Positions 2,213 through 63,620 of a DNA stretch of 64,000 bases are shown here, in pieces; the stretch's first letter is position 1, and every line of letters starts with the position of its first letter. Below the pieces are notes generated by a model that was not told where the DNA came from, did no database searches, and was given only the letters and a program-made list of their open reading frames with translations. The position numbers and the translations under genes were made by a program. Source of the stretch: Centruroides vittatus (lineage: Eukaryota); contig NW_027122708.1 of assembly GCF_030686945.1 (NCBI RefSeq), positions 5,866,248 to 5,930,247 on the forward strand. Direction: 5' to 3'.

Positions 2213-2633
2213 GTAAGTACAAACATATCCATATATTTCTAAATTGATAAAGATTTACTATTTAGAAACAAAAAGTCTAAATCTGAATTATATATTTAAT
2301 TAAAACTTAATTTTAATTTCTATTTTTATTTCAGACTTACATTTTAGAATAGAAGTATTTTTAATTGTTTTTTAACAAATCTAACATGAAAAAATAATAT
2401 TTTGTAAATTGGATTCCTTAAATAGACTAAATTTGTTGATATAATCTTGGAAAATTTAATTAAAATTATTTTTTATATTTTATCTTTATTACAGAATTAA
2501 AAAATAATACTGTAGTTTTATTTCATGTAATTAATTAATTTCTTTTAATTTAATTTTGCATTTTCTGAAAATTTATCAATTTTTCAAATTTTATTTTATT
2601 ATCTGAGTATTTTCTTTTTTCTTTCCTTTTCAG

Positions 2634-3440
2634 CTTGTGTTAAATCTGTCTCACAATCTTTTCCAACAAAAATTTTACCAGACATTAAAAACACTTCCAA
2701 AATCCCTCCACACACTAGATTTAGCCGGAACGAATTTGTCGTTTATTCCTGATTTGAACCTCCCTAAATTATTAAATCTAAATTTATCTTATAATCAAAT
2801 ATCATTTTTAGATTCTGGAAAGTTTTCTAATTTATCAACATTACATGTATTAGATCTGTCTTATAATAATTTTTCATTACCTTCTCATCCTAATAGTACA
2901 TGGCAAAATCTCCCATTTCTAAAGAATCTTTATCTTTCTGGTAATCCTATTTTAAATTTAACAAATGATAGCTTTTTTGGATTAAATCAATTAGAAGGAT
3001 TATTCATTCAAGATTTGCCACTTCAACACATCCAAATTGGTGTATTTAAATTATTAAGATCTCTCCAAAAATTAGAAATGAATACATATCCAGAAAGTGA
3101 ATTTTATGATTTAGGTACAACAATTTCAAATAATCAAGGATTAAGACATTTAAAATTGCATGTACAAGAAAATGATTTTGAATATAAGAAAAAATATAAT
3201 TTCCCTAAATCTCTTAAAACAATAACATTACAAGGAGAAAAACTTCAATCAATTAATGAATTTTTCTTTGAATCATTGGAGAAACGAGATTTAACAATTC
3301 ATATTCATAATACAAACTTAACTGAATTATCGTCAGGATTTTTTTATAATCTTGGCAAAATAATGAAGCTTAAGATAGACGTAAGAAACAATAAACTGAA
3401 AAAACTTGAAGATGTAAGAAATAATCACCATTTCAAATAT
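2634..3440 (+). CDS. Chaoptin-like LRR protein, exon 2 (269 codons, LRRs)
   Basis: A polypyrimidine tract plus cag acceptor lies at 2631-2633. The exon is phase 0 and in frame with exon 1 (…SWLPKL|LVLNLSHNLF…). A gtaagt donor sits at 3441. The LRR periodicity continues. Confidence 0.75.
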
Positions 3441-3504
3441 GTAAGTCTAAAATACTTCATATTTTATCTAACTTGATCATTTTTTTAAAAATATTTTTTT
3501 TCAG

Positions 3505-5994: not shown

Positions 5995-7917
5995 TCCAAC
6001 ATGACTAAAACACATGGCTGTACCTACACCTTCTGCAAACTGGACATGATATCCTTATACCCATCTGTTCCTATATTTGAAGCCATAACGCTAGCCAATG
6101 CTATGCTCCTCAGAAAGGAATTTACTGTTCAACAGGTGCTAGATATTCATGAAGCACTAACTTTCATCACTGAAAACAACTACAGGTAGGCCTCCTACAA
6201 TGCGTTTTCACTCCAATGCGTTTGGAAAAACGCGGAAATTTTCTTACAATGTGGTACTTTTACAACACAGTTTAGGGTATTTAGAAACAAATTATCTTTC
6301 ACATAACGGAAAAATCGCAATGTATCACATAAGGGCAGTGGAACTTGATGAAACAAGTTCAGATCTTGAAATAAGGCCAGTCAAATATTCTCGAACATCT
6401 ATAATAAGTGACGATGAGGACTGAATTTGTGAGCATAACATGTTTCTTTTTGATTTTGACTTGAAATCATAATCTTTTTAGTTTTTATATGATGTTGAAT
6501 TTTATTTAAGTTTTTTTATGTACATAAATTTAAAAAATGATGAAAATGTTACACCATAAAAGGCAGTTTTTTCTCTTTTTAGAACTGAATCCCAGTTTTT
6601 GTATTAAGTTGGTGTCTCCTATAATGTGATTTCCCACAATGTGGTATTTTCAAGAAATGTATCTACCATGTTGTAGGAGGTCTACCTGTATTTCGGTTTT
6701 AACAAGAAAGTCTACTTGCAGAAGCAAGGAGTTCCCATGGGCTCTCCTCTCTCCGCAGTTTTGACCAAGCTTGTCACGAGAGACAAAAAACTTTTAACAC
6801 CCCACTATCTGCTATCCGTCACTATATTTACACTATGTCGATGACATCCTAATAATATGGGAAAATACAAAAGAGGAGTTCATCAAATTTAAGCAGCAAC
6901 TTTCAAGCATATACACCACCATCAATTTCACCTGGGAGAAGGAGCAGGATCAATCTACAACGTTCTTAGATTTGCGACTACAAAAGTCACTTGAAAGGCT
7001 TCAGTTTAAAGTGCATCATAAATCCAACGTGATACCTTATATCATCCCAGCCGATGCTTTTCAACCGTCACGGTATGTCAATGCCACCATAGCGGCTCTC
7101 ATCAGAAGGGCCCTACTACTTCCATCATTGCAAGCTCTAACAGAGGTTGAATTGGAAATCATCAGAAGGGCCCTACTACTTCCATCATCGCAAGCTCTAA
7201 CAGAGGTTGAATTGGAAATCATCAGAACGGCAGTATGTCACACTAGTTTCACAGGTGCCAAATTTTCACGTACTATGTAGGGTAAAAGATTCCCTTTTCC
7301 TATTTACCATGCTACACAGCAAGAAAGATATATCTATAGTACAATCAGCATTGCCGTACCTAGGACCACCCTCCATACACATTAGCTGTATTTTCCAGTG
7401 GCATAACTTTGCTCGCCCTCTAACTCCCTTACCAAGTCTACACACGAACATATGCAATCATCGAGATAAAGTATCTACTTTAGAAAAATCAGGAGTGTAT
7501 GCAGTACAACTAGAAAATCCGGTAACAGGAGCAATTGAGATATATATAGCGGCAATGACAAGAATGCTCGCTTGCCGCATTGCAGAGCATCAGGAAGATG
7601 TAGCCAAAGGAAAACAAACCACAGATCTCACCAAAAAAGTTCTACAGCAAGGCTACAACCCATTGTGGTCCAAAACACAATTCCTCAAGCACTGTAGTAG
7701 CAGAAAGATTGTATTTATTTGGGAAGTGCTTTTCACAATGACTACAGATGCATGCAATGTTCCTGCCCTCGACTTGCCGAGATATTTAAATGCTGATATA
7801 AGGCTACCCATAACGAAATGTGCCAAACGTCGTACAATTAGCATGATTGCAATTCAATGCACGTGCCGCCTGCTGTGTGAATTTAAAAGTTTTCGAATAT
7901 TCTCTAAAGCTTGTTGA
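5995..7917 (+). mobile_element. Degenerate Penelope-like element (PLE) copy e: RT (F.KLD…YPSVP, GVPMGSPLS, YVDD) plus GIY-YIG endonuclease (SGVYAVQL…IYIAAMTRMLACRIAEH), with frameshifts and an internal insertion
   Basis: ORF 6001..6189 carries RT motif 1/2. Region 6700-7080 carries RT motifs A-C across frameshifts. ORF 7207..7917 carries GIY-YIG. The order RT then GIY-YIG is diagnostic of PLEs. Confidence 0.7.
7100..7221 (+). repeat. 61-bp perfect tandem duplication inside PLE copy e
   Basis: atcagaagggccctactacttccatcattgcaagctctaacagaggttgaattggaa occurs twice in tandem, and a third partial copy starts at 7222. Confidence 0.85.
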
Positions 7918-8579
7918 ACATTACTAATGGTTTTACCGGATGTTTGATTCAAAAATCTTTAAGAATTTTCTGCTCTCCTTGGAACACTCTGCACGTTCTT
8001 TTTTTTATGTTTTTCTTTTTCGCCTGAGGACGACGAATTTATACTCGTCGAAAGTACTTGCGATATAAGAAATATTGTATTAATGCTGAACTCAGTGCTC
8101 GTTATTAAGACATTATATATGACTTTATCACAAAAAACAAGAATTTCAGAAGAGCCAGGTCCTTCATCACAAAAAATGAACTTTACATTTCTGTGTGCAT
8201 ATGTTTGTGTGTTATATTGTTATGCAAATTAATATAAAATATGTTAAATAAGTTAAAATTATAGTAAAATTTGTTCATTTGTGTTCGCAATCCCCTTTCC
8301 TTATTTACTCTATGTTAAAATGACCTCATGTAATGCTGTTTTGCTTAGCGCTTTGTTGTCTAGGAACAAATCCCCCGCATTAAGCAGGGTCTTACACTGT
8401 ATGTATATAAATAGTTAAATAATATATATACAGTATATATATATATATGAGAAATTTTGTATATTATTATTTAACTATTTGATGCAGTCATCCTATCCTT
8501 GGTGAGAGAATGGAATGGAATAATATAGATTCAAAGGCCTCAAACTAGTTCAATTGACCTAGAATTCATAAAAGAACCA

Positions 8580-13595: not shown

Positions 13596-14101
13596 TTAAC
13601 AATATTTCAATTTAATTAAGAGCACTTTTAATTATTAATTTAAGATAATTTATTAATTCATTAAAAAATGAAAATAATAATAGGCTACAAAATAAAACAC
13701 AGTGGACTAAAATTACAGAATGACCTCAAATTATACCCAAATCTAGTGAAAAAAAATAAATTAATAATAATAATATATCCAAAAACAAATAGCCTTCAGC
13801 TATCATCAATGTTCAAAGTTACATTCTATTTTCAAACACTACACCAGAACCTGATGATGATAGCTGGCTATTAAAAACATTTGTTTTTGGAAAAATATTA
13901 CCTTTTTTTTTTTTACTGAATTTTAGTTTAATTTGAGGTCATTCATAATTTATCCAGTTTTTGTGGTGGTTGTATTATAAAATCACAAATATTTCATTTC
14001 CCAAGCTACTGTTAGTTTATATTAACTAAGAAAGCACTACAAATTCTTAATTATAAATCTGATAAATGATAAAAATTTAAATTAAACAATGTCTTCTTTA
14101 C

Positions 14102-18365: not shown

Positions 18366-18709
18366 AGTCATGCCATAAAAAAATGTTTTGAGAGTTCCAT
18401 TGTACCTTTTGTTTTTGTTTGCCTCTTATTTCAAACTTTGTTCTTTCTTGTACCCATTAGTCTTGAATTCCACTGTGAAATTTAAATATTTAGAATATTT
18501 AAATGTTGAGGATATTGTACTGCATGTAATGACATTCTGTTCCAAATTCAAAACATTCATTAGCCTGATGATGATAATTTTGTATCGTTGAAAGTACTTG
18601 TGTTATAAAAAAGATTTAAAAGATATTAAAGACTTTTTTATAACACAAGTACTTTCAATGATCTAACAGTGTATGCATCTAGTATTATAATTAATACAAC
18701 TACAGTAGA

Positions 18710-19189: not shown

Positions 19190-19656
19190 ATAAATGATAT
19201 AAATAACACCTTTTTAACAATCCAGCAAATGTTTAATTCGTTAAAAAAAAACATTTTCGACCAATTTCAGTGGTCTTCATCACTGATTCTAAAGTTAAAA
19301 GAATAAAGCATTCGAAATTTACAAAAAACAAAAATAAACAAAAATAAACTCAAATGTGGTTGCGCAGATCAACGGAAATGCACTTATGGGTTAATCAAAA
19401 TTATAAAAATAAATATAAAAAAAAATACAACAACTAAATATAAATAAATAATAGTGCCATCCAAGAAGATACATCTATTAACTTGTATTAATATTAAAGG
19501 ACTGCCAGGCAGTGGATAATCCATCAGCATCCTTGTGATTGATGCATTCTGTGGTTACATGTGCCTTGTGTGGTTACATGTGCCATTTTTTCAAGATGCT
19601 TTTTTCAAATTAAACATTTGCTGGATTGTTAAAAAGGTGTTATTTATATCATTTAT
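19190..19656. repeat. Inverted repeat pair (50-bp arms 19190-19240 and 19606-19656); MITE-like
   Basis: The 50-bp segment aattaaacatttgctggattgttaaaaaggtgttatttatatcatttata is present in both orientations. Confidence 0.6.
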
Positions 19657-21854
19657 AACAATCAATATTAGATTTTTGTCATTAACTGAAATTTTTGAGC
19701 CTTATAAACATTTGTTCTGAAGTCATTATCATAAACGTCATAAATAAATAATGCATTTTTGAATGTCAAAGTCTGTTAATTACTGTCTATGCTAAAAATA
19801 AAAACCATTCATGATGCTAACTTCAATTTTATTTCTATTAATCAACATATTGCAACAAGTTTACAATTGTACAGTACATGCTAGTCTACGACGATGATAA
19901 GTTCTAAAATTAAAGTGTTATTTTAATCTAAAATATTTTAATGTTAACTTATCAGTTTAGTGTTACATGGCAAATTGTATGTTAGGCCTATTTAATTATA
20001 TGTACAATTTAATTTGAATTTTCCAAACTATAATAATAATTAATGGGTTTGTAAATTACGGTTTTATTTTGTGCACAATAATTTTTGGGGAAATTTTGTG
20101 TACATTTGGTAGAATTTTGGATTCTGAAAATATTCTGCACCCCTTTTCATAAGTTGCATTGTACCACAGTATTTCTTGCTTCCTGCATATGGGTACACTT
20201 AGTCATTGTATAGTAGTGTATTGTGAGCAAAAATATCAACAAGGCAGACAAGGAGGCAATTCCCCGACTTTTTGACAATTTTTGACAAATTTCCTGACTT
20301 TTCCTGATTTTCCAGGTGCATAGGAATGTATGTTTCTGTATGTTTCAAATTGCAGAATGTTTTAAATATGTTGTTTTATGTCACTGCTCTAACAGACTTT
20401 ATTTTTTGATATTAAAGTTGGTTACAAAAATTCTCATCATCAATCCCTCAGAAGTTATAACAATTCATACAAAATAAATATGGTAAAAAATATTTTATAA
20501 ATATTATATTCTAACAGTCAGTTGTAGCCTCATATAAAATTTGCCATTTTATGTTTTTCCCCTAATTCATGTGATAATGGGTGGATCCCACAGCTTGTGT
20601 TCTTGCAGTTCATGTGATTTTCCTTGATGGTAGTCTTAAAAATTTCCCAAGTTTCTAGTGTTCCGAGTTTTTGCACATTAAAACTTGTTTAATTAATTTT
20701 GCTTCCTCCCAGTTGACTGTTATACCAGGATCATTTGTGTACTGGGCTAGTACTGTCGATAGTTTGTTGTGCTCAGTTCTCAGCTTGCTCTTGGAATTTC
20801 CTTGATGTAAACCTACAGCGTGCCCTACAAAAACATTTGCTTCAAGTATAATTCAGTACACAAGAATAAATGTTATACAGCTGGAAAAGTGTGCAAGATT
20901 GTTTGTAAGTCATTTTTTACAAAGTATTTAAAATTTTAAAAACTTTTTACAAATAAGTTTTAAATCATTACATTTTAAATTTATGAAATTTAACAATTAT
21001 TTGTTCTTTAGTAGAAATTCTTATATACATAAATTAGACTATTGTAGTCATTTATAGTGTATTGTGATCAATTTATATCATATATATGCAAATTATATTG
21101 TCTAAAAATGTATAATTTGCAAATTTATTACAGTAAAGCATGTGAAAGTGTAAGATATGCTGTAAAATTAATAACCACACAGGTCATACTTAGATTGCTG
21201 GAAGTTGTCATTGTACCTAAATATGGCAAAAGCACTGCACTGTATGCATGATACATAGATAACATAATAATATGGAGGAAACCCAACATCCAACACTTCA
21301 TTAAAAATATTAATTCAAACCTGTAGGGCTTAAAAATAGAATTAGAACAAGAAAATGCTGAGGATGCACATTTCCTGGACATCTTAATCATGCTGAAAGA
21401 ATGGGCTATCACCATATATTTACAGGAAACCAACATATAATCTGCTGTTTGTCATGGGAGGCCCATGGTATATAATCAGCTACAAGCTAGTAACATTTAG
21501 GGCTCTAATAAAAAGAGCCCACATGCACTGTAAGAATGTGCAAGACAGAATATGAGAGCTAGAATACATTAGAGCATTTAGAAGGCAATTTAGAGTCAAA
21601 TATACAACCTTAGCAACTATGATCAACAAGTGCAAGTGTTAAAGAGGTACAATACAAAAGATGAAAAAGCAGGCAGGGTACACAATAGTAGAACATATGG
21701 CATCCTTCTGTAACAAACAGGAAAATAGGAAAAACTACAACAAAGAATAGAATTACTTTTAAAAGGAATTCCACTATTCACAGGCTACTGCATAACAACA
21801 AATTTTAATTTATATTAAGTTATATTCTTGTTTTACTATATTTTTATATATAAA

Positions 21855-22665
21855 TTATATACAAAAAAATTAAATACCTTCTAAAACCGATAACCAGTGC
21901 GAACTATTTTTCGAAATGGTGAACATTTTCACTGCCCCTCCTGGGCTCTTCCTCAGGCCAATTCTGGATTTGATAATCGAACAGCATAAATAAATGGAAC
22001 GTGTTGAGAAGCCTATTGAGAAATGGAAAAGACGCACTTAACCCGTATAGGCTTCCGGGAGTGTATAGTATCCCTCTACAGGACGACAGATGGCAGAAAC
22101 AATTACTGTACATAGGGTCCACTAAACGCCCACTATGCACTAGAATAAAGGAGCATAAATCCGACATTACCCGCCATAAATACACAACGGCATTGTCAAC
22201 GTATGCAGCAAACCCGGATATAACACAGAATTTTAATGAGGCAAAGGTGATCCGCACCACCCAACATCAAGAACATCTGAGAACTCTGGAGGAGATTGAA
22301 ATTTATAAAGCCGATCGCACAACAACATGTATTAATTTCAAAGAAGAAAGGAATCTCTCCACTGCTTGGCAGTTTTTATTGGAAGAAAGGTCGTAAATCA
22401 GTTGACGTCACGCGTATTTATCATAGGAGGCGCACATCGTTTTCCCAAACGGAATAAAAGGAAATTTAAATATTTGGAACGGCACGCGGTTGCCCAACGT
22501 ACTCGATCGTTTAAATTACGGAACACATTCCATTTATTTATGCTGTTCGATTATCAAATCCAGAATTGGCCTGAGGAAGAGCCCAGGAGGGGCAGTGAAA
22601 ACGTTCGCCATTTCGAAAAATAGTTCACACCAGTTATCGGTTTTAGAAGGTATTTAATTTTTTTG
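21855..22665 (+). mobile_element. PLE copy c: a GIY-YIG-domain fragment (22001..22396: LPGVYSIPLQDDRWQKQLLYIGSTKRPLCTRIKEH…) bracketed by 150-bp inverted repeats (21855-22005 and 22521-22665)
   Basis: The GIY-YIG motifs GVYxIPL…YIGxT.R.L..R..EH are present. The flanking arms are reverse complements of each other. The two flanking ORFs end in the identical peptide NTFHLFMLFDYQIQNWPEEEPRRGSENV. Confidence 0.7.
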
Positions 22666-23508: not shown

Positions 23509-26500
23509 TTAATTAACTGTAGTCCTTCTGAAGTAAGAGGTGACAAGGTCCCTGAAAGCCTGAAAAAGGTTGTTGTCTTGTAACAACACATGTAAGTCCT
23601 GAGGCCAGTTCCCACTGGACGGCAGCAGGGAGAGAATGGCGCTTCGTTTGTCGTCCAACATCGGGCACTGCAGCAGATAGTGCCTGGCACCATCTGGAAT
23701 ATTGCATAGTTCACAATTCTGTTCAGTTGTTTTGTTGAACCTGAAGAGATAACTATTAAATTTACCGTGCCCGGTATAAAACTGTGTTGTTCTATGTTCA
23801 ATATAATGATGATTACTAGCTGAGACTGTGGGGAAAAAATCCCTTGTAATGCTGTTGGTCCGCAGGTTCCATGTACCCTGCCATAACTCAGTCGCATTCT
23901 CCTTTAGGCTGGAAATTATGTAGTTTTGGGGAGTTGCTGTATAGGTAGGTGTGCCGCTGGAGACAGTTGCGGTGCGGGCAAGCTCGTCCGCTCTCTCATT
24001 TCCAAGGACACCAGCGTGCCCTCTGACCCACACCACCGAAAACCTATTGATGTTTTTGGTCATTTCCCGGAGAATTTCGTTGACTATGGGATGGCCCCAG
24101 TTAAAGTTGTGGATAGCCTGAAGTGATGAACTGGAATCTGTGAACAGGTTGATGTTGGTATTACTTAGCTCCTCGTTACTCCATTTGACTGCTTTCAGGA
24201 TTGCCCAAAGTTCCGCCTGAAACGCAGAGCAAGTATTGCCCAGTCTATCAGAGAAATTATACACTTCCAGGTTGCCATGATACACTACAAACGCACATCC
24301 AACCCCATCATTGTTCTTCGATCCATCAGTAAAGACACTGAAGGACTGATCTGGCCAGGGTTGACCTCCAATGTATGGCCATTCATAGGGAGGGACAGAA
24401 GGGGTACAACTATTTGTACTCTCGATATTGTCAAATATTACTCCGTTTAAAAGGATGTTTTGGCCCTTCCTCATTCTCCATCTTTGTACCGCAATTTCCA
24501 AATGTAATGTCACTGGGAGTTTGCTAGCAATAACTTGCAGGGCAGCAGTTGGAGCCGTCGAATAGGCTCTGCAAATACGCAGCAGGGCCCTCCTCTGGGC
24601 ACTCTGTAATTTTCTGTCAATATGGACTTTCCCTAACCCATCTGCCCAAGCAGGTGCAGCATAGCCAATAATGGGCAGGAACACTGAGTCATAAATAATA
24701 CTCATTATTTCAGGACACAATCCCCACTTTGACTTTGCTACCTTTGACAGTGCATTGAATATCTTGTTTGTCCTATTACATATATATTTGATATGGGGGA
24801 TCCAGCAAAGCTTGTGGCTAATGACAATGCCCAAGTACTTTAGTGATGTTACAACTTTTACACTACTATGCCCCATACGTATAGTAGGTACTCTTCGATA
24901 TAAATGTGGGGCTCTTGGCTTTGTAAAAATAATTCCCTTTGTCTTGTTTGAGTTAAATTCTAGTTTGTTCGTTTCGCCCCAGTCCTTTATTTTTGCCAGA
25001 ATGGAATTAGCCTTTACTTCCATTTCTGCCCGAGAGAAAGCAGCCACCAGTACCATTACGTCATCTGCGTACGCCACTGTCCAGTCATTTCCAAATTTTT
25101 CATTTAAGAATCCGTTGAATAGCAGGTTCCACAAAAATGGGCCCAATACTGAGCCCTGTGGGCAGCCACGAGAAATGTGTCTTGTGTATGTCCTTGAGCC
25201 AACGCAGAGAGTAGATGTGCGGTCCTGCAGGTAACTCCGTAATATATTATATATATAAGCTGGGCACTTACTTTGTTGAAGTCTGAGGAGTACCATAGGC
25301 CACCAGGCAGAGTTAAAAGCTCCCGCAATATCCAAACTTAGTCCTAACACATAGGGGTGGGTAGTTAGCAGTTCTTTAACTTTAGTAGTTACTGATAGAA
25401 TAGCGTCTGTAGTATCATAACCATTGCGGAATCCGTATTGTTGCTCATGAAGATATTTATTTTTATCAATAAACCAAACCGTCCTGTTCAAAATCAACCT
25501 CTCCAAAACTTTTCCCATAATGGGCAACAGAGAAATGTTCCTGTAATCATGTGGTGAAGCAACAGGCGTGTCTCTGACTTTAGGAATGAGTACAAGTCTT
25601 GCCCTCTTCCAGGCCGTTGGAAAGATATTGTACTGAAGGCAATAATTATAGATAACCAGAAAAATTTTTGGTCGATGTTCCCATATTTGCTTTACAATAT
25701 CTGCCGAAATTCCATCGAGGCCTGGGGCCTTACGTGGTGCTAGTCTTTTAATTGCCTCGTTAACTTCCAGTGCCGTAAAGGGTGGTGGACAAGGGCCCTG
25801 AAGAAAAGTTGCAGTTTGATTCCTTATGATTTGCTGTGTTGTGCTGTCCTCTGAAACAATGTCCTCAGGGCGCAGGGTATGTAGTAAAAGATCAATGGTA
25901 TCTTCCATGTTTGCCTCTTTGCCATCTATTCCGCAAAGTCCTGTGAGACAAGTAGCAGTCTTCAGTTTGGAAGCACAACTCTTGTAAATGAATCCCCATG
26001 GATCTGTAGACGCCGACGAGCAAAATTCTCTCCATGATAGAATTTTAGCTTTCTTGATAGCCTGTTTGTAGATGGCTTGGTATTCCAAATAGCGTGATTT
26101 TAAGCTGTCTCTTTCCTCACTCCTACAGTTTTGGTAATTTTTTCTATGTTGTCTGTTAATTTTCCTCATTTCAGCCAGTTCTTCGTTCCACCAGGGGACA
26201 CCATTTTTAGAAGGTCTCCTAAGCGTGAAGCACTCATCACAGGCTTCAGCGATTAAATTAATTTGAGTGTCAATATATTTCACTGCCGAGTCCCTGTCCA
26301 TTATCTCGGGCAAAAGGTCAATACCGTCATCCAAATATCGAAAGAAATGGTCCCAGTCTGCATTCTTAGTATTGTAAACCTTGTTGCTATTAAAAGGTAT
26401 TTTCCCAGTTGTACTGTAGATTTGGAATGTAATGGAATTATGATCAGAGAGAGTATCTGCTATGACTTGCCAATCATGGATTCTGTTCAGAATATCGGGC

Positions 26501-27078
26501 GAAGAACAGGTGATATCGATCCATGACTTCCCATTTGGTCCCTCAAAAGTAGGTATAGATTCCGGATCATTGACACTAATAAGGTTGTTACCGGCCAAGA
26601 AATCCTCCACAGCCTCACCCCTTTGATCCAAGTTCTCGCCCCCCCATGTGGGTGAGTGGGCATTAAAGTCCCCAGCGATAACTAGGTAGCTGTCTTTAAA
26701 GTATTCCTTAATATTCTGTAAAATTTTCAATTCATTGTTGATATCTTTCTTTTTTGGTGCATACACGCTAACGACGATCAGACTGTGATCATCCAATTGT
26801 GTTTCTATACATACTATGTTTTCAGTGGTAAACTGCCGATGATGAAACACGGCGACACTGTTATTTGGAATAACGATAGCAGCCCACGGGGAATTCACAG
26901 AGTCCTGAAGGACAAGATGTCTGTGTGGAATGCAGGCAACCTTGTTATTAATACAATAAGGTTCCTGTAGAAGAACAATATCGTAGTTGGTAATATCGAC
27001 GCTGAGTGAAGAAATAGCACTTATAGATCTTTGTAAATTAAGCTGCAGAAATTTAAATCCATTGTAACTACTCCCCAT
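23509..27078 (-). CDS. LINE ORF2 polyprotein (APE endonuclease, reverse transcriptase, RNase H); intact 1189-aa ORF
   Basis: See the LINE entry; there are no internal stops. Confidence 0.85.
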   Translation of the reverse strand: MGSSYNGFKFLQLNLQRSISAISSLSVDITNYDIVLLQEPYCINNKVACIPHRHLVLQDSVNSPWAAIVIPNNSVAVFHHRQFTTENIVCIETQLDDHSLIVVSVYAPKKKDINNELKILQNIKEYFKDSYLVIAGDFNAHSPTWGGENLDQRGEAVEDFLAGNNLISVNDPESIPTFEGPNGKSWIDITCSSPDILNRIHDWQVIADTLSDHNSITFQIYSTTGKIPFNSNKVYNTKNADWDHFFRYLDDGIDLLPEIMDRDSAVKYIDTQINLIAEACDECFTLRRPSKNGVPWWNEELAEMRKINRQHRKNYQNCRSEERDSLKSRYLEYQAIYKQAIKKAKILSWREFCSSASTDPWGFIYKSCASKLKTATCLTGLCGIDGKEANMEDTIDLLLHTLRPEDIVSEDSTTQQIIRNQTATFLQGPCPPPFTALEVNEAIKRLAPRKAPGLDGISADIVKQIWEHRPKIFLVIYNYCLQYNIFPTAWKRARLVLIPKVRDTPVASPHDYRNISLLPIMGKVLERLILNRTVWFIDKNKYLHEQQYGFRNGYDTTDAILSVTTKVKELLTTHPYVLGLSLDIAGAFNSAWWPMVLLRLQQSKCPAYIYNILRSYLQDRTSTLCVGSRTYTRHISRGCPQGSVLGPFLWNLLFNGFLNEKFGNDWTVAYADDVMVLVAAFSRAEMEVKANSILAKIKDWGETNKLEFNSNKTKGIIFTKPRAPHLYRRVPTIRMGHSSVKVVTSLKYLGIVISHKLCWIPHIKYICNRTNKIFNALSKVAKSKWGLCPEIMSIIYDSVFLPIIGYAAPAWADGLGKVHIDRKLQSAQRRALLRICRAYSTAPTAALQVIASKLPVTLHLEIAVQRWRMRKGQNILLNGVIFDNIESTNSCTPSVPPYEWPYIGGQPWPDQSFSVFTDGSKNNDGVGCAFVVYHGNLEVYNFSDRLGNTCSAFQAELWAILKAVKWSNEELSNTNINLFTDSSSSLQAIHNFNWGHPIVNEILREMTKNINRFSVVWVRGHAGVLGNERADELARTATVSSGTPTYTATPQNYIISSLKENATELWQGTWNLRTNSITRDFFPTVSASNHHYIEHRTTQFYTGHGKFNSYLFRFNKTTEQNCELCNIPDGARHYLLQCPMLDDKRSAILSLLPSSGNWPQDLHVLLQDNNLFQAFRDLVTSYFRRTTVN

Positions 27079-32525: not shown

Positions 32526-32729
32526 TTATATTTCATAAATTGCCCACAAAGCATTTGAAAGGTTTTCCGCATCCCAATGATTGATGCAGTGTGACCTTTC
32601 GTGTGGTTTATATATTCCTAATTTTTTCATAAATCCAATGTTGTGTAAGTTAAAAGTGGGCCTAATAATTTTGGCTTGATCCCATTGAATGTACACATCA
32701 TTGTTCTCTGAATAAGCTGCTAGTACCAT
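32526..32729 (-). mobile_element. PLE copy d: degenerate C-terminal GIY-YIG fragment
   Basis: DVYIQWDQAKIIRPTFNLHNIGFMKKLGIYKPHERSHCINHWDAENLSNALW is collinear with copy a DVDVHWDKASIIRATTNKQMLKHLEKLEIYKAHVNTGCINHRDADGLSTAWK. Confidence 0.6.
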
Positions 32730-33595
32730 GTTACTGAGGTTTTTTCTAGCTGTGTATTAATGTTCTTTGACCCTCTGCTGTAAATTACAAAGAGTAGCCA
32801 CTATGTAAACTAGCTTTGAATTGAAACAATGGTCATTGACCATTGGAGTAAATCCCAGTGGGGAAGTCCTAATCATGTGGTTTTTATCATCATTCCTCAG
32901 CATCTTAAAAATCATTGGATTAAATTGAAATACTATATTCCTGACTTTGTTATTTTGAATTTGTAATTAAGAATTTGAAAAGTTTGTAACTGAAATTGAT
33001 CAATGAAATCTGATTAAGAACGTTATTATTTCAATAAATTTTTAGCTGGATTTACCAAGGTTTAGTTTATTGGTTTATTTGAATCTATCCAGTTTTTCCA
33101 CTTCCTTGATTATTAACAGATCTGTAAACAATCATAAATTCCAACAAATCCTTTAATAACTAACATTTGACTGTATTCAAAAGCCTTACATCAAATTACA
33201 TTATTTTGAATATATTAAAACATCTATGAAGACATTGTGAGCATCTTTGATATTTGAAATTGGTTAATTTTCTAAAATCAAGCTATTAGTAACATTCAAA
33301 AAAATTTTGATAAAACTAACTTTATCACTAACAAAACAGACTACTATTAAAAGTCTGTTGTTTACTTGCTTAAAAAATCTTAAATTTTGAATAAACATTC
33401 TTGTCTTTGTAAATTCTGTAATACAGTATGTTGAAATAAAGATTATAAATGACAAACTATTTTGTGCCCATATATACAACCACTATATGACCACTTGATT
33501 TCCCCCAAGAACAGTCACAAATAAGAAGTTTTATTGTATGTTGTTCTTTTTAACTTATATTAGTCTTGAAAATTTTAAAACTTCTTAATTATTAC

Positions 33596-34765: not shown

Positions 34766-36310
34766 TTTTGTTCATATTCTTTCTTCCAAAATATTCTACA
34801 AATTAATTAATTCAATTTAATTATTAAATTTAGTACAAGACGGCAACTTAATCATCTATCTTTACCCAAATTATATAATATCACTGTATTTAATTAGCCA
34901 GGTTATAATACTAGATTCATTATCAGGCTTTAAGTTAATTTGATTACAGAATTTGGTCTTGGTTTATTGTAATAAACATTGAATGTATATTATTGTGACT
35001 GCCACAATGCCAAGCTGCAGTTTTTAATCATAAATTATAAAAAAATCATGAAAATTCTGGTCTTGATTAAAAGTCATGTGATTATATACTACTCGTATAT
35101 ACTTAACTATAGCAATTAACTATATAGAGATTTCTGGTCCAGGCTGGAAGTTCATATATAGTTAATTGGGAGCTCCAGCCCATATCAGGTGTTAATTTTT
35201 GTCTAGCTCTGTCTTCAAGGTTAATGAATGACAGATGGACAGACAACAGTGAGAATGAATAGGTCTGCAATTTGAATTGCAGCCTAATAATAAAGATTTT
35301 AATTTAAATGAAATTTGGTCCTCAGAAATAATTTGGATATTCTATGGTGAAAAGTGTCGTCCCTATCTTACTGTTTCAGTACATTGCATATAATCTTTGT
35401 ACTGAGTCAGTACTGCTAATCTTCATATAATGTGGTTTCAATATAACGTGGTTCACAAATTGTAGCAATCCTTGTACAATGCAATTTAGATACGAGTCCA
35501 TATGAAATCATCTGTTTACCTTATTCTATTAAATGTTCTTTCAATTACAACATACTTCCAATGTAGATTATACAATTTTTCCCCTACATGGTGAAAGCTT
35601 CTCTCTACAATGATGAAAACTTTTTATTTTGCATGGCAATCTTATTAAAAAAATGTAAATTATTATTCTGTGCTAACAAGTATGTAATTTATATACTAGA
35701 AATTCCCTTTGGCATTTTGTATGTAAGTTGCATGCTGCTTATAATCATCTTTTTCAGCTGTGTTCTTGAAAATAGCATTCAATTAGATAATAAGTGTTGA
35801 CAAGTTAGTTAAAGACATACAGTAAGTCCATATCAATTCTAAGTGATTAAAATTATGTTTTAAATTTTAATAAGTTTGTGTTTGTTTTGCAATTCATGTT
35901 TTGTTAAATGAAATTTTCTGAAATAAATAAAACTATTTTTTCTTACATGATAGATAAAATTTACATTAAAAAAATCATTTTGGAATGTAAACTCATTTTG
36001 TATGTAATGCGAGTCTCAAATAATGCAATTTTTATAACAAGACATTTTTGTGGAACCTAACTACTTGCATTATATGAGGGTTACCTTCATAAAAGAAAGA
36101 AAAACAATAGATGACTTTAAGTAGATTGATATAGATAAGTTAGGTTTAATATCAATTTAGACAACAGTTTTTTATACATAAAATAAAAAATGCTATCATT
36201 CTGATTCATGAAAAATTGAATTTATAAAGCATTATTTGTAAATTTGCAAGTTAAACTTTGATCATAGTTTATATTAACTATAAGTAAATCAGCTACTGGA
36301 AAAATAAACT

Positions 36311-38779
36311 ATTAAAAAACAAAAACCTTAATGTTTCCAGCAATAAAAACTATTTAATAATAACGTTTTCGACTGTTTTAAACAGCCATCATCAGTTAAA
36401 ACGAACTTAAACAAAAAAGAATGCAGAAAAATAGAACCAAGCAATACAAATATTTAAAATTCAAAAATAATTCCAAAGTAAAAATGCCGTCGTATATTAG
36501 AAACTAACAAAACTGTGCATGCGCTAAATATCGTAGTAAGAATAAAAATAAAAACAAATAACAAAAAATACTGCCGCAAAAATATTTCTATTACAAGAAA
36601 GAACGTTATGCATTTCGGTAAAACGACTTCCATGCCGTGGATAAACCATCTGCGTCCCTATGGTTAATGCAACCCGTGTTAACGTGGGCTTTGTAGATTT
36701 CCAGCTTTTCTAGATGTTTCAGCATTTGTTTGTTGGTCGTGGCCCTAATAATAGACGCTTTGTCCCAATGAACGTCGACATCTTGATGCTTAGCGAAAGC
36801 TGCTAGCACAGTAGTATCCAAGCTCTTATTGATGGAGTATCTATGCTCCTTAAGCCTCTGCTTTAAATGTCTCATAGTTGCACCAACGTATACCAGATCT
36901 GTATTAAACCGGCGATCTTTTAAAGGTATAGAATATACCCCCGTCTTAAAACTCTGGTTTTCTTTCTTCTTGTCGTTTCTCAATAATCGATATATTGTAG
37001 GATTACATCGATACAACAATCTTATGTTGTTATTTCTGGCTACTTTCTTAATCATCGTGTGCAAGAATGGAAAATAATTGAGAATTACTTTTCTTCCTTG
37101 ATTCATAGGAGGAAGCTGCCGATTTTTTGCCTTCCGAAATTTGTCGATAAGCCCATCAATCTCCTTACTCCGATATCCGTGTTGTAATACTGTAGTGCGG
37201 ATGTAACTTAATTCCTTGTAGGTGTCAATAACACTGGTGCAATGTGTGTGAGCACGTTTGATCCAGGCATGAAAAGCTGCATATTTAAAATTCATCGGAT
37301 CGAAAGAATTTTTTGGTATAATAATGGGCTGATAGCTGGGTTTTCTATAAACGTCCGTCCATATTTGACCCTCCTTGCATGTGATTGAAAGATCAAGGAA
37401 ATTTACATTAGAAGCACTTTCTTGGTCCAGCGCTAAAGTCAAACCATATGGGTTTTTGTTGATTTCTTGAAGGAAATGCAGAGCGCTACTATCATTTTTC
37501 CAAAGGATGAAAACATCATCAACATATCTTGTATATAAAACGATTTGATGTTGAAAGAAGGGTATGACTTTGTTTTCCAAGCGACGTAATACAAGCTCAC
37601 ATAAAATAGAGGACATAGGGCTCCCCATAGGCACCCCTCTTTCTTGCAAATATGTTTCATCTTCAAATTCGAAAAAGCGATGTGTAACAAATTAAATTTG
37701 CAAGTTCCAAAATGCTGGAATGGTATTTCGCTGCATTATCTATATTAGCAAAAAGAAAGTCCCTCAGTTCACAAAAACACGGCGGCAGTCTTATAGACGG
37801 AAACAAGGACTTAAAATCCATTACCGTCATATATTCCTTATCCTTGAGTGTAATGTTGTTGAGCTTTTCCACTAGTTGCACTGCGTTTTGTATAGCATAG
37901 GAGTATTCTTGAATCTTTGGCCGGATAAACTTGACAAGCTGCTTCTCAATGGCAAATGTAGGAAATCTGCACTTCTCTATTACCGGGCGTATTTGGTAAC
38001 CAGGCTTGTGCGTTTTACCAAAGGCGAAAATTCTAGACATTTTTGGAGCCTGTAAAACTGAATTATGCATACGCAAAATACGAGCCAACGGGGTTAAAGA
38101 GAATTTCTTGACTCTTTGTTGCAGCGATTCCATGTATTTGTTGGGAGCATGTTGACATTCGGTGGTTCTGATGTATTCATGTAATTTATGGTTATACGAG
38201 TCACGTTTAATAAGGACAACACCTTTAGATTTATCCGCTTTAATAAGTACTATATCATTCATTTGTAGCCATTGCCTTGACATTTCAATGCAGTTGTGGA
38301 ATCGTCTTGCTTCTAACTTAAACTTTCTTTCATTTGTGGAGCTAAACCTTGCTTTCCATCTGATGTAATCTTGCCTGGTAGCATTCATATCCTTAATAAT
38401 TAATTCAACATTTGGAATAATATTCTCAGGCCTTGGTACAGTAGTAGGAGCAAAGAGTGGGCCATATTTTAGAGCTTCAAAAAGACACTTTGGAGGAGTG
38501 ATGTTATCCCAAGTTGTTATAAATGTATTATTAATCAAGCGAGGTTTACTATGATATTTAGCGCATGCGCAGTTTTGTTAGCTTCTAATATACGACGGCA
38601 TTTTTACTTTGGAATTATTTTTGAATTTTAAATATTTGTATTGCTTGGGTTCTATTTTTTCTGCATTCTTTTTTGTTTAAGTTCGTTTTAACTGATGATG
38701 GCTGTTTAAAACAGTCGAAAACGTTATTATTAAATAGTTTTTATTGCTGGAAACATTAAGGTTTTTGTTTTTTAATATA
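36311..38779 (-). mobile_element. PLE copy a (most complete): ORF 36606..38538 with RT (FKSLFPSIRLPPCFCELRDFL, PMGSPMSSILCE, YVDDVFILW) plus GIY-YIG (GVYSIPL…YVGATMRHLKQRLKEH), one stop/frameshift near 37650, bracketed by 225-bp perfect inverted repeats (36311-36533 and 38552-38779)
   Basis: The motifs are as listed. The arms are exact reverse complements. The arm carries a CUGAUGA…GAAA hammerhead-like core (see findings). Confidence 0.8.
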
Positions 38780-39041
38780 TTAACTATATTTCAAATGTAA
38801 AAGTATAGGTCCCTATTTTATATGTAGAAATTCATTGGTAATGCACTATGTTTAAAATTCATTAGCAAACATAGAAAAAAAACTTCTGTTTCAAACAAAT
38901 CACTTTTAATGTTTTTTAGTGAGAAATCAATTTTTTTAGTGAGAAATCAAAATTCAATACAATCCAAAACATTTTATTAACCGATATGTTTATAAATAAA
39001 TAAATAATTAATTGAAAAAAGTGTTAATTTATAATTAGAAA

Positions 39042-39439
39042 TACAGTAGAGAGTTGTTAATCTGAATCAATTGAGGACTGGGGTTGTTTGGATTAGTGAT
39101 TTGTTCGGATAACTGATTATGTACGAAAAAATATATTAACCTGTCCAATGTTCAAATTGTTCTCCGTCGCGTCTCGCTTCGTGTTGAATTTTCATTGATT
39201 TTAAGCCTAAGGAAAATTTTTATAATAATAATCGAGGCTATTGTATCGTTAAAAATTATTTCTTTATTTGGTACAAACAAAATAAATATATTGAAGAATA
39301 TAAAAACATGAAAATTATACTTTAGAAGTTAATCTAGTATCAAAAACGTTCGATTCAGCATGACACAGTCCGACTGAAAATTGTTCGGATAACCGGCAAT
39401 TCGGATAACTGGGGTTCGGATTAACGACTCTCTACTGTA
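39042..39439. mobile_element. MITE, TACAGTAGAG-terminus family, about 395 bp, TA flanks
   Basis: It starts tacagtagagagttgttaatctgaatcaattgaggactgggg… and ends …ggggttcggattaacgactctctactgta. It is about 90% identical to 62684..63045. Confidence 0.85.
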
Positions 39440-43381: not shown

Positions 43382-44613
43382 TTACATATCGCCTGAGCGC
43401 CAGGCTGCAGACACTTTACTAGCCTCTCTGAAGTTGATAGATTGTCCTCTCTGGCTTGCTTTGCAGATATGCCAGGCTTCTGTATAACGGAGGTGCTTTA
43501 TGTTGCGAACTGTTTGTATTAATCTTGCTTGGGCCCATTCAGCTTGGACTTCTTGGGGATCTGCCAGGACGTAAGTTGCCAATGCTGTGCAAGGTTGTTC
43601 GCTTCTTATATTTCTCTGATGTTCCGCCAGCCTTTCCTTGAGTGATCTTCTGGTGGCTCCGATGTAAAATAGTTTATTCTGCCTCCGTGTGTCCGTAATA
43701 GGGATTCTGTAAACCCCCGGAAGGGAGTTAGTGTCCATGGCGTCTTTATCTGCTCTTAACAGCTGGTATATAGTGGAATTCCGTTTATATATTATTTCTT
43801 TGTTTGTAGCGGTTCCTATACGTCTATAGATGCTGCCCATTTCCGCCCTGTAGTCCATCAAAGTAAACTCCTCTGTATTTCGGAGATTTCGCCCCTTATT
43901 GCGTGTCGTAATCTTGCTAGTGAAAGCTTTAGGACTGATGATCCCGTTCTTCTTAGCTAGCTTAATGATGTAGTTTATCTCTTCGTTTTTGTCTTGGGTA
44001 CTACTACAGTGTGTGTGTGCTCGTGCAACGAGTGCTCTGAATGCTGCGAGCTTGTACGCCGGCGGGTCGTGCGAGTTCCATGGGATAAAGATCGGGTTGT
44101 AAGTAGGCTTTCTGTATACCTTAGTACGGAAAGCTCCTTGGCTGTCGAGCTGTATAGATAAATCTAGAGAATGTATAAGCTTATCATTTTCTTGCTCGAG
44201 TTCGATCTCTAGGCCGAATTTGTTATCGTTGATGTTCGTTATGAATTGGTGTAAGTTGGGTTTGACTTTCCAGAAAACAACCACATCATCAATGTATCTT
44301 GCATAAGTTAGGATTTGCGTTGCATATTTTGGCAGGAGTGCATTCACCAGCGTTCTTAGGACCATCTCGCATAAAGTACCTGCCAGGGGGCTACACCCGT
44401 CTGTTGCGTGTAAGTGATGCCATTAAAGCTAAAGATGGATGAGAATGTGGTTAGGTGCATCATCTCTAGTATTTGTTTTCTCTTCTTTTCTGGGGACTTG
44501 ATCACGGTTAACAGGAAGTCCCTTAGATGACAGAAGCATGGTTCCAGCTTGACAGAGGGATACAGAGCCTTGAAGTTATTTAATACGCATCGATGTAGAG
44601 ATGGCGCACGCAA
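43382..44613 (-). mobile_element. PLE copy b (second family, 5'-truncated): RT (KALYPSVKLEPCFCHLRDFL, YARYIDDVVVFW) plus GIY-YIG (LPGVYRIPITDTRRQNKLFYIGATRRSLKERLAEH)
   Basis: The motifs are as listed. Two ORFs (43382..44365 and 44356..44613) are separated by one frameshift. Confidence 0.75.
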
Positions 44614-62683: not shown

Positions 62684-63045
62684 TACAGTAGAGAGTCGTT
62701 AATCCGAATCAATTGGAGACTGGGGTTGTTCGGATAACCGATTATGTACGAAAAAATATATTAACCTGTCCGATGTTCAATTTTTTTCCGTTGCGTGTCG
62801 CTTCGTGTTGAATTTTCGTCGATTTTAAGCCCAACGAAAATTTTTGTAATAATGATCGAGGCTATTGTATCGTTAAAAATTATTTCTTTATTTTGTACAA
62901 ACAAAATAAATATATTGAAGAATATAAAAACGAAAATTATACTTTAGAAGTAAATCTAGTATCAAAAACGTTCGATTCAGCACGACACAGTCCGACTGAA
63001 AATCGTTCGGATTACCGGGGTTCGGATTAACGACTCTCTACTGTA
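62684..63045. mobile_element. MITE, TACAGTAGAG-terminus family, TA flanks
   Basis: It starts tacagtagagagtcgttaatccgaatcaattggagactgggg… and ends …ccggggttcggattaacgactctctactgta. Confidence 0.85.
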
Positions 63046-63128
63046 GTTAGGTTTAGTTGTAAACATTTCGAAGTATCAAACACAAATTCGTGTTAATAAC
63101 AACCACTTGGCTTTTTTCCACCTTTATT

Positions 63129-63178
63129 TAGTTGATACGGTACACGTTTCGGGCCTTATGCCCCTCATCAGTCAACAG
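63129..63178 (-). ncRNA. Mirror-image hammerhead ribozyme motif on the minus strand (left arm of the palindrome)
   Basis: It is the exact reverse complement of the 63248..63297 motif. Confidence 0.75.
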
Positions 63179-63247
63179 TTCTTCCCCAGTATGGCACTTG
63201 TACACGGTAAGTTTGGACATTACAAACTGGGAAGAACTGGGGGAGAA

Positions 63248-63297
63248 CTGTTGACTGATGAGGGGCATAAGGCCCGAAACGTGTACCGTATCAACTA
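63248..63297 (+). ncRNA. Type-I hammerhead ribozyme motif: helix I cuGUUGA/UCAACua, core CUGAUGA, helix II GGGGC-AUAA-GGCCC, GAAA, helix III ACG-uguac-CGU, cleavage site GUA|U between 63290 and 63291
   Basis: All 11 conserved core nucleotides are present at canonical spacing (CUGAUGA…GAAA…UH). Helix I has 5-6 bp, helix II 4-5 bp with a GNRA-like loop, and helix III 3 bp. The helix III loop contains the palindromic GUAC, as in dimer-prone PLE-type HHRs. Confidence 0.75.
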
Positions 63298-63409
63298 AAT
63301 AAAGGTGGAAAAAAGCCAAGTGGTTGTTATTAACACGAATTTGTGTTTGATAATTTGTAAACATTTCCTAAAAATAATTATACGTTATATTTTGACATAA
63401 AATTATCAA

Positions 63410-63620
63410 TAGCGAGGTTGAGGCCGAAGTTTTAAACGCGAAAACGTGTACGTCGGGCGTTCAGCGCCGCTTTTCTGTAAGCCTAGAAGTTCGACAATGG
63501 CGTTTGGAATGTCGAGCATGATTCCACTGACTTTCCAAACACCATTGTCAAACAGAAAAGCGGCGCTGAACGTCCGGCGTACACGTTTTCGCGTTTAAAA
63601 CTTCGGCCTCAACCTCGCTA
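63410..63620. repeat. 210-bp GC-rich near-perfect palindrome (67-bp arms plus a 76-bp centre containing a nested 17-bp palindrome)
   Basis: tagcgaggttgaggccgaagttttaaacgcgaaaacgtgtacgtcgggcgttcagcgccgcttttctg…cagaaaagcggcgctgaacgtccggcgtacacgttttcgcgtttaaaacttcggcctcaacctcgcta. The nested palindrome is gacaatggcgtttggaa/ttccaaacaccattgtc. Confidence 0.9.

Follow-up and report, generated by a model that had tools for sequence, protein, structure and literature searches.

What kind of element is the short palindrome that lies near the right end of a 64,000 bp stretch of the genome of the scorpion Centruroides vittatus (contig NW_027122708.1, positions 5,866,248 to 5,930,247; the whole stretch is called the window hereafter) and that carries a hammerhead ribozyme (HHR) motif in each of its arms? 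The palindrome is best read as two severely 5′-truncated copies of the 3′ end of a Penelope-like element (PLE) joined head to head, and the 285 bp unit that contains it (63070-63354) probably arose in one event of target-primed reverse transcription by a PLE reverse transcriptase (RT) and GIY-YIG endonuclease. Structures of this sort are already known as products of PLE insertion and are common in the C. vittatus genome, and the link to retroelements drawn in a preliminary description of the sequence was right.

Read from left to right, the segment from 63046 to 63409 consists of an 11-nt flank, the 13-mer TTGTAAACATTTC, the nucleotides GAAG, a 117-nt arm, a 45-nt spacer, the reverse complement of the arm, the nucleotides AT and a second TTGTAAACATTTC (Table 1). 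The preliminary description had reported an inverted repeat of 315 bp; the palindrome is real, with an inverted repeat proper (63074-63190 / 63236-63352) of 279 bp inside the 285 bp insertion, and the outer 13 bp are a direct repeat, the target site duplication (TSD). This 13-mer occurs just twice in the window, at 63057 and 63355, and 13-mers shared by the 25-nt flanks of random 285 bp spans were found at 2.8e-4 of positions in the real window. The four additional nucleotides at 63070-63073 have no counterpart in the other arm. At its right edge the spacer carries ACTGGGAAGA, a partial repeat of the arm start, and it may be additional 5′ sequence that belongs to one copy or the other. With a single difference between the 117-nt arms and none between the two 13-mers of the TSD, the insertion appears to be recent. 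Comparison with Centruroides PLE proteins by blastx revealed nothing of PLE coding origin between the two TSD copies, the nearest remnant being about 18.7 kb away. The preliminary description had noted no PLE open reading frame (ORF) within 18 kb on this side; six PLE ORF remnants are present in the window. No tandem direct repeat of the insertion unit was found at the locus, and each strand carries one sense HHR, as had been described for transcripts of either direction. Look-ups of a spurious 78-aa ORF spanning the inverted repeat and of C. vittatus PLE proteins returned no record, and a GTAAGT in the spacer, considered as the sign of a retained intron, would imply an intron of less than 40 nt and was taken as chance.

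Both arms contain the same 46-nt motif, GUUGA-CUGAUGA-G-GGGC-AUAAG-GCCC-GAAA-CG-UGUAC-CG-U-A/UCAAC (the slash marks the predicted cut), which a descriptor search found on both strands where the preliminary description had placed it, on the plus strand in the right arm and on the minus strand in the left. The HHR core is complete (C3-A9, G12-A14, the A15.1-U16.1 pair, the GUA triplet and H17 at the cut; 63255-63290). The triplet and the cut agree with those proposed beforehand, as do the pairing of helix I (5 bp, open) and helix III (3 bp) and the self-complementarity of the GUAC loop; helix II has 4 bp, and helices II and III are closed by loops. The motif had been called a canonical, textbook type-I HHR, which holds for the full core, but it is a minimal HHR that lacks loop-loop contacts and is missed by Rfam. 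The orientation had been given as convergent and is in fact divergent, with the minus-strand copy on the left, the plus-strand copy on the right and the 5′ ends of both toward the centre. In first-order Markov simulations that preserve the dinucleotide frequencies of the window, a strict HHR descriptor is expected to match 0.003 times per 64 kb. A descriptor with helix II closing directly on the core misses other PLE HHRs, which were found when a bulged nucleotide was allowed; this PLE-type descriptor matched five motifs in the window, at 8024 (+), 36395 (-) and 38692 (+) plus the pair at the locus, against 0.017 expected.

The motif also has traits specific to PLEs that lie outside the requirements of the descriptor. 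PLE HHRs are marked by an extra nucleotide between A9 and G10.1, a G10.1-C11.1 pair and a palindromic helix III/loop 3 that is stable as a dimer (Cervera & de la Pena 2014, PMC4209133). All of these are present at the locus (CUGAUGA-G-GGGC...GCCC-GAAA), with a short helix III whose palindromic loop is stable only in the dimer, and the PLE-type pattern recognised in the preliminary description is thereby borne out; the layout around the extra nucleotide is shared by every one of the eight PLE-associated HHRs aligned for Centruroides (alignment A2). For the helix III 11-mer, ACGUGUACCGU, the predicted energy is 0.0 kcal/mol as a monomer hairpin and -8.8 kcal/mol as a homodimer, which pairs over 3 + 4 + 3 bp with a bulged U and includes the palindromic GUAC of loop 3, and for the 46-mer the homodimer reaches -28.6 kcal/mol as compared with 2 x -9.3. 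Folded alone, the 46-mer has the three-way junction as its minimum-energy structure (-9.3 kcal/mol), with no excess of stability over shuffled sequences (z = -0.16), and this fold is lost in predictions for the motif within its 117-nt arm. A transcript of the whole unit is predicted to form a perfect 117-bp hairpin of -224.5 kcal/mol in which both motifs are sequestered. Inspection of seven HHR families by eye showed, in four of them, an AATAAA or ATTAAA hexamer 3-14 nt downstream of the predicted cut (Table 1); the hexamer might act as a polyadenylation signal and so define where the template RNA ends, or be a mere effect of AT-richness.

The same anatomy of arms, TSD, HHR motifs, orientation and distances recurs at PLEs that bear an ORF. 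PLEs are very dense in the C. vittatus genome, and the window, with a GC content of 30%, holds about nine HHR motifs in its 64 kb, at least eight of PLE type besides that of the locus, and six PLE remnants, the remnants belonging to several families with 22-96% identity to Centruroides proteins. One of them, PLE-A, comprises a degraded RT and GIY-YIG ORF (36606-38538, minus strand) that shares 96% identity with a protein of Centruroides vittatus and has 90 relatives, nearly all from Centruroides. This ORF is flanked by inverted arms (36305-36539 / 38546-38782) that are 97-98% complementary and carry identical, divergent HHRs at 36355-36401 (-) and 38686-38732 (+), the compound unit (36270-38788) being a long copy with an inverted, 5′-truncated copy of 237 nt at its 5′ side. 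It is bounded by a 13-nt direct repeat, TATATTAACTATA, at 36270 and 38776, a TSD of which two nucleotides possibly belong to the element end, and has a 22-nt tail (36283-36304) that is confined to its left end. Other HHRs occur 107-226 nt 3′ of PLE ORF stops, and none was recognisable 3′ of the remnants PLE-B (43382) and PLE-E.

For comparison we used ten loci of C. sculpturatus around annotated PLE genes (L001-L010, 231 kb), which together with the window amount to 295 kb. In a solo inverted repeat at L008 5278-5527, a 29-nt spacer separates arms of roughly 100 nt that carry divergent HHRs; the unit is bounded by a 14-bp TSD (ATTGTCAGGCAAAC) and bears a tail of 20 nt on one side, and its HHR family occurs also beside a PLE ORF in L003. 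Another, at L005 18019-18344, has 153-nt arms, a 20-nt spacer and divergent HHRs; no TSD was found there. Longer head-to-head pairs are present in L003 (two), L005 (with 1.9-kb arms), L007, L008 and L010. Over the 295 kb, neighbouring HHRs of the same family on opposite strands were divergent in ten of ten pairs and convergent in none, with gaps of 38, 71, 72, ~425, 1010, 2285, 2531, 3659, 4930 and 4931 nt, and the insertion studied here is the short end of this continuum of 5′ truncation. Three families agree closely in how far the HHR cut lies from the 3′ end of its arm: 62 nt at the locus, 58 nt in L008 and 56 nt in PLE-A. Separately, we noted that the inner 1797-nt arms of a head-to-head PLE pair at L005 7495-11362 are 100% complementary with one nucleotide between them, and this pair is either a very recent product of the snap-back type or an assembly artefact. 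We also noted two identical HHR-like motifs on the plus strand of L003 at 4561 and 15098, 10.5 kb apart in direct orientation (CTGAGGA-T-...-GAAA-TTCGTACCGAA), which are without the A15.1-U16.1 pair.

Table 1. Coordinates of the insertion and of related hexamers, PLE remnants and HHR motifs (window positions unless a C. sculpturatus locus is named)
Feature	Position	Strand	Remarks
Left TSD, TTGTAAACATTTC	63057-63069		exact 13-nt direct repeat of 63355-63367
Four extra nt (CTTC on -, GAAG on +)	63070-63073	-	from 3′ end of left copy to TSD
Left arm, 5′-truncated copy of a PLE-type 3′ end	63074-63190	-	116/117 positions identical to right arm
HHR motif, left	63131-63176	-	predicted cut 63136/63135; descriptor match; R1 24.9 bits, E~3e-4
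Unique 45-nt spacer	63191-63235		head-to-head junction
Right arm, 5′-truncated copy	63236-63352	+	same 3′ end as left arm
HHR motif, right	63250-63295	+	predicted cut 63290/63291, 62 nt from arm 3′ end; best Rfam match HH9 local, 14 bits
Two extra nt (AT)	63353-63354	+	from 3′ end of right copy to TSD
Right TSD, TTGTAAACATTTC	63355-63367		exact direct repeat of left TSD
AATAAA/ATTAAA hexamer	63299-63304		
AATAAA/ATTAAA hexamer	36353-36358	-	
AATAAA/ATTAAA hexamer	L001 ~12055		
AATAAA/ATTAAA hexamer	L002 ~568	-	
PLE RT/GIY-YIG remnant	6689-7731	+	blastx
PLE RT/GIY-YIG remnant	19487-19570	-	blastx
PLE RT/GIY-YIG remnant	21159-22372	+	blastx
PLE RT/GIY-YIG remnant	32535-32957	-	blastx
PLE RT/GIY-YIG remnant	36609-38388	-	blastx
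PLE RT/GIY-YIG remnant	43394-44577	-	blastx
PLE-type HHR motif, intact or degenerate	8018-8065	+	R1
PLE-type HHR motif, intact or degenerate	13845-13888	+	R1
PLE-type HHR motif, intact or degenerate	18559-18605	+	R1
PLE-type HHR motif, intact or degenerate	19243-19292	-	R1
PLE-type HHR motif, intact or degenerate	22565-22612	+	R1

The preliminary description had proposed a structure search with Rfam, which at the gathering score recovered neither the locus motif nor any other HHR in the whole window. The best local match was to HH9, with 14 bits as compared with a threshold of 52 and E = 0.31 on 77 nt. A covariance model (R1) was built from eight PLE HHRs of Centruroides with the locus motif excluded; seven of these adjoin a PLE ORF or sit within an ORF-bearing unit, and the eighth (L002 -616) has its closest annotated ORF at a distance of some 9 kb. 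An alignment of whole 3′ ends by MAFFT misregistered the locus motif and was not used. In the R1 alignment 86% of cells are paired on the HHR structure as compared with 26-41% in slid controls, both sides change in 9 of 13 pairs, and pairing in helix II reaches 97.7%. In an unfiltered run of R1 over the window, the locus motif was recovered on both strands and at full length (1-47) with 24.9 bits and a rough E of ~3e-4, together with further PLE-type motifs (Table 1), three of which lie 107-195 nt 3′ of PLE ORF remnants; in the one at 13845, G12 is mutated to A. None of the R1 motifs in the window was found by Rfam at the gathering score. That the Rfam HHR models miss these motifs entirely and a small lineage-specific model finds dozens matters for the annotation of chelicerate genomes.

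In the mechanism that we propose, the endonuclease would nick the two DNA strands about 13 bp apart, giving rise to the 13-bp TSD, and each nick would prime cDNA synthesis on the 3′ end of an RNA of the PLE family, starting about 60 nt downstream of the HHR. Because there is no tail, both primings would have used the proximal RT start site, on two RNA 3′ ends, and both cDNAs would have stopped or been joined after only about 117-162 nt, leaving two truncated copies head to head.

PLE insertions are known to show heavy 5′ truncation, often an inverted 5′-truncated copy, TSDs and an optional 30-40 bp tail at one end (PMC8557442, PMC3846280). With the endonuclease-containing (EN+) PLEs of the Penelope/Poseidon type (Pen2a_Av of Adineta vaga, PMC3846280; scheme in PMC8557442) the locus shares the head-to-head inverted 5′-truncated copy, the TSD around the unit, the HHR in a repeated 3′ or pseudo-long terminal repeat (pLTR) region and the strong and variable 5′ truncation. 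It differs from them in that both copies are cut to about 117-162 nt without an ORF and that the 20-40-nt tail is missing. The 13-bp TSD contrasts with the 8-10 bp of rotifer PLEs and is in line with the other Centruroides insertions (13 and 14 bp). The motif resembles the minimal PLE HHRs (PMC4209133) in its type-I topology, the extra nucleotide, the G10.1-C11.1 pair, the absence of loop-loop contacts and the dimer-stable palindromic helix III, whereas the stem of 1-2 bp and the 2-4-nt loop of those HHRs are replaced here by 3 bp and the 5-nt UGUAC, with one bulged U per strand of the dimer, and helix II has 4 bp instead of the 6 bp that is often seen there.

A PLE protein in purified form cuts both strands of DNA and extends them, and its reverse transcription starts at two internal sites whose spacing corresponds to the tail (PMC11167929). 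In the element concerned, Poseidon of Anolis carolinensis (PAc, PMC11167929), the HHR stands at a fixed short distance upstream of the 3′ terminus, as it does at the locus, and cleavage and extension of both strands would give exactly the head-to-head product seen here. The two start sites explain ends with and without a tail, the Centruroides ends lying at +56-62 nt where there is no tail and at +78 nt where there is one. HHR cleavage was unnecessary for insertion of the Anolis element in vitro (PMC11167929). The PAc ORF begins within the HHR, whereas the ATG of CUGAUGA in the locus HHR reaches a stop after 14 codons by direct reading. Animal non-LTR retrozymes, as presented by Cervera & de la Pena 2020 (cited in PMC8557442) and in bioRxiv 10.64898/2026.07.22.740005, are likewise small non-coding units with a type-I HHR related to PLE pLTRs, but they consist of tandem direct repeats and form circular RNAs, in contrast to the inverted pair at the locus.

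Several observations weigh against a PLE origin of the unit. A tail of 20-40 nt is absent from both insertion ends, which carry only 4 and 2 extra nucleotides. The R1 score of the motif is modest, falling below those of the training families (55-62 bits) and among the degenerate remnants at 18559 (+), 19243-19292 (-), 22565 (+) and 13845 (+), on account of a shorter helix II and a helix III segment of 9 rather than 4 nt. Helix III, with 3 bp and a 5-nt loop, departs from the 1 bp and 4-nt palindromic loop of the other Centruroides PLE HHRs, and the HHR family consists here of just two identical copies, without variation from which covariation could be read. No longer copy of the HHR and arm family joined to a PLE ORF was found in the window or the 231 kb of C. 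sculpturatus, and the link to PLEs is accordingly one of architecture and motif signature and not of sequence homology. BLAST revealed no relatives of the arm elsewhere in the window or in the ten C. sculpturatus loci, and exact-pattern scans found the arm in no metagenome contig and in no bacterial or archaeal genome of GTDB. The template could have been an autonomous PLE or a non-autonomous element derived from a pLTR; the integration machinery is that of a PLE either way.

A template of the latter kind, namely a short HHR-bearing retroelement that is non-autonomous (the monomer of a retrozyme or a PLE derivative resembling a short interspersed element) mobilised by PLE proteins in trans, is in our view possible and somewhat unlikely; it leaves the mechanism of integration the same and changes the parent alone. 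It is favoured by the finding that 295 kb of Centruroides DNA yielded no relative of the arm linked to an ORF, and by the longer helix III and the GC-rich helix II, both unlike those of ORF-linked HHRs. It is also known that pLTR sequences alone suffice for mobilisation in trans in rotifers (PMC3846280), and animal retrozymes have been proposed to be derivatives of PLE pLTRs (bioRxiv 10.64898/2026.07.22.740005). Yet the layout that defines retrozymes, a tandem direct repeat or second sense HHR, is missing at the locus, and with one sense HHR per strand and no tandem repeat a circular RNA cannot be excised, which removes the retrozyme-like element suggested in the preliminary description. Equally small solo inverted repeats occur, moreover, in ORF-linked families, such as the L008 family that is also found beside the PLE ORF in L003, so that small size alone is no sign of a non-autonomous family. 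Snap-back of a single cDNA by self-priming, in place of synthesis from two nicked strands, would arrive at the same architecture. It has been put forward for inverted repeats of PLEs whose junctions are palindromic (PMC3846280), and L005 7632-11226, a perfect palindrome with a 1-nt spacer, would suit it. We regard it as unlikely for the locus, where the junction is a non-palindromic spacer of 45 nt. Self-priming on a sense template is, according to the authors of PMC3846280, expected to give tail-to-tail and not head-to-head products, and PLE protein extends both strands in vitro (PMC11167929).

HHRs normally reside in the pLTRs of PLEs (PMC4209133), and the preliminary description had accordingly entertained the pLTR of a full PLE lying beyond the right end of the window. 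This is now highly improbable, since the identical 13-bp TSDs at 63057 and 63355 close a complete 285 bp insertion on both sides, and the downstream sequence as far as 64000, made up of a palindromic element with TA flanks that is unrelated to the unit and then an AT-rich stretch, matches no PLE protein. Just as improbable is a foldback transposon or miniature inverted-repeat transposable element (MITE) with HHR-bearing terminal inverted repeats (TIRs), or a chance HHR-like motif in a hairpin RNA gene, even with perfect inverted arms, MITEs on both sides and Rfam alignments to generic microRNA hairpin models only. Cut-and-paste DNA transposons have terminal inverted repeats and fixed, short TSDs of 2-10 bp, a range that excludes the 13 bp found here; the neighbouring MITEs are flanked by TA, and 2-4 unmatched nucleotides separate the arms from the TSD. 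A chance motif is opposed by the expectation of 0.003 per 64 kb and by PLE-specific features beyond the descriptor. The microRNA matches, obtained at permissive E-values with generic plant and animal models, reach 66-70 bits as compared with 117-150, far under the threshold, and cover the long stem only; a microRNA hairpin identity was rejected as an artefact of that stem.

As part of a double-primed PLE insertion, the HHRs are passengers, being the ribozyme of the PLE pLTR. Self-cleavage of the single sense copy at the locus is predicted to be poor or absent, because each transcript holds one sense copy and helix III needs a partner. A read-through transcript is expected to form the 117-bp hairpin that buries both motifs and might serve, at most, as a small-RNA precursor, and the locus is most likely the inert debris of a recent insertion. 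Taken alone it adds little, as one more PLE-derived inverted pLTR pair in a crowded scorpion genome, and with its 285 bp, exact TSD and near-identical arms it also illustrates, cleanly and in minimal form, what a double-primed PLE insertion leaves behind. That the HHR keeps a constant distance from the 3′ end in different families agrees with the internal sites at which RT starts in vitro on the Anolis element. More speculatively, and with little confidence on our part, the palindromic helix III loops might pair two PLE template RNAs antiparallel through their HHRs in a dimeric RT/endonuclease particle that primes both nicked strands symmetrically. Such pairing would explain the divergence in ten of ten pairs, the fixed distance of 56-62 nt in three unrelated families and the same RT start of both arms, and if true, the main role of PLE HHRs would be template pairing rather than cleavage.

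The palindromic element to the right of the unit (63410-63620), a 211-bp '50% GC hairpin', is almost fully palindromic and TA-flanked (TA-GCGAGGTTGAGG...CCTCAACCTCGC-TA), has a 79%-identical copy at C. sculpturatus L002 18005-18227 and probably represents a palindromic MITE family of the Tc1/mariner type that is unrelated to the HHR unit. On the left, a MITE at 62684-63045 has perfect 25-nt TIRs starting with TA-CAGT, TA flanks, a second copy in the window (39042-39439, 86% identical) and relatives in L001, L002, L004 and L008. It had been described as directly abutting the palindrome; it does end at 63045, which is 11 nt short of the TSD and not strictly adjacent, and the closeness of a member of so abundant a family looks coincidental. 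A target preference for MITEs was considered and rejected, the copy near PLE-A being about 250 nt away and the family simply abundant. Elsewhere in the window, an intact 1189-aa ORF of a long interspersed nuclear element with AP-endonuclease, RT and RNase H domains (Pfam) occupies 23509-27078 on the minus strand and may belong to a young, active non-LTR element. At 14-3476 on the plus strand, large leucine-rich-repeat coding exons with 14 LRR_8 stretches form part of a host gene that continues beyond the left edge of the window.

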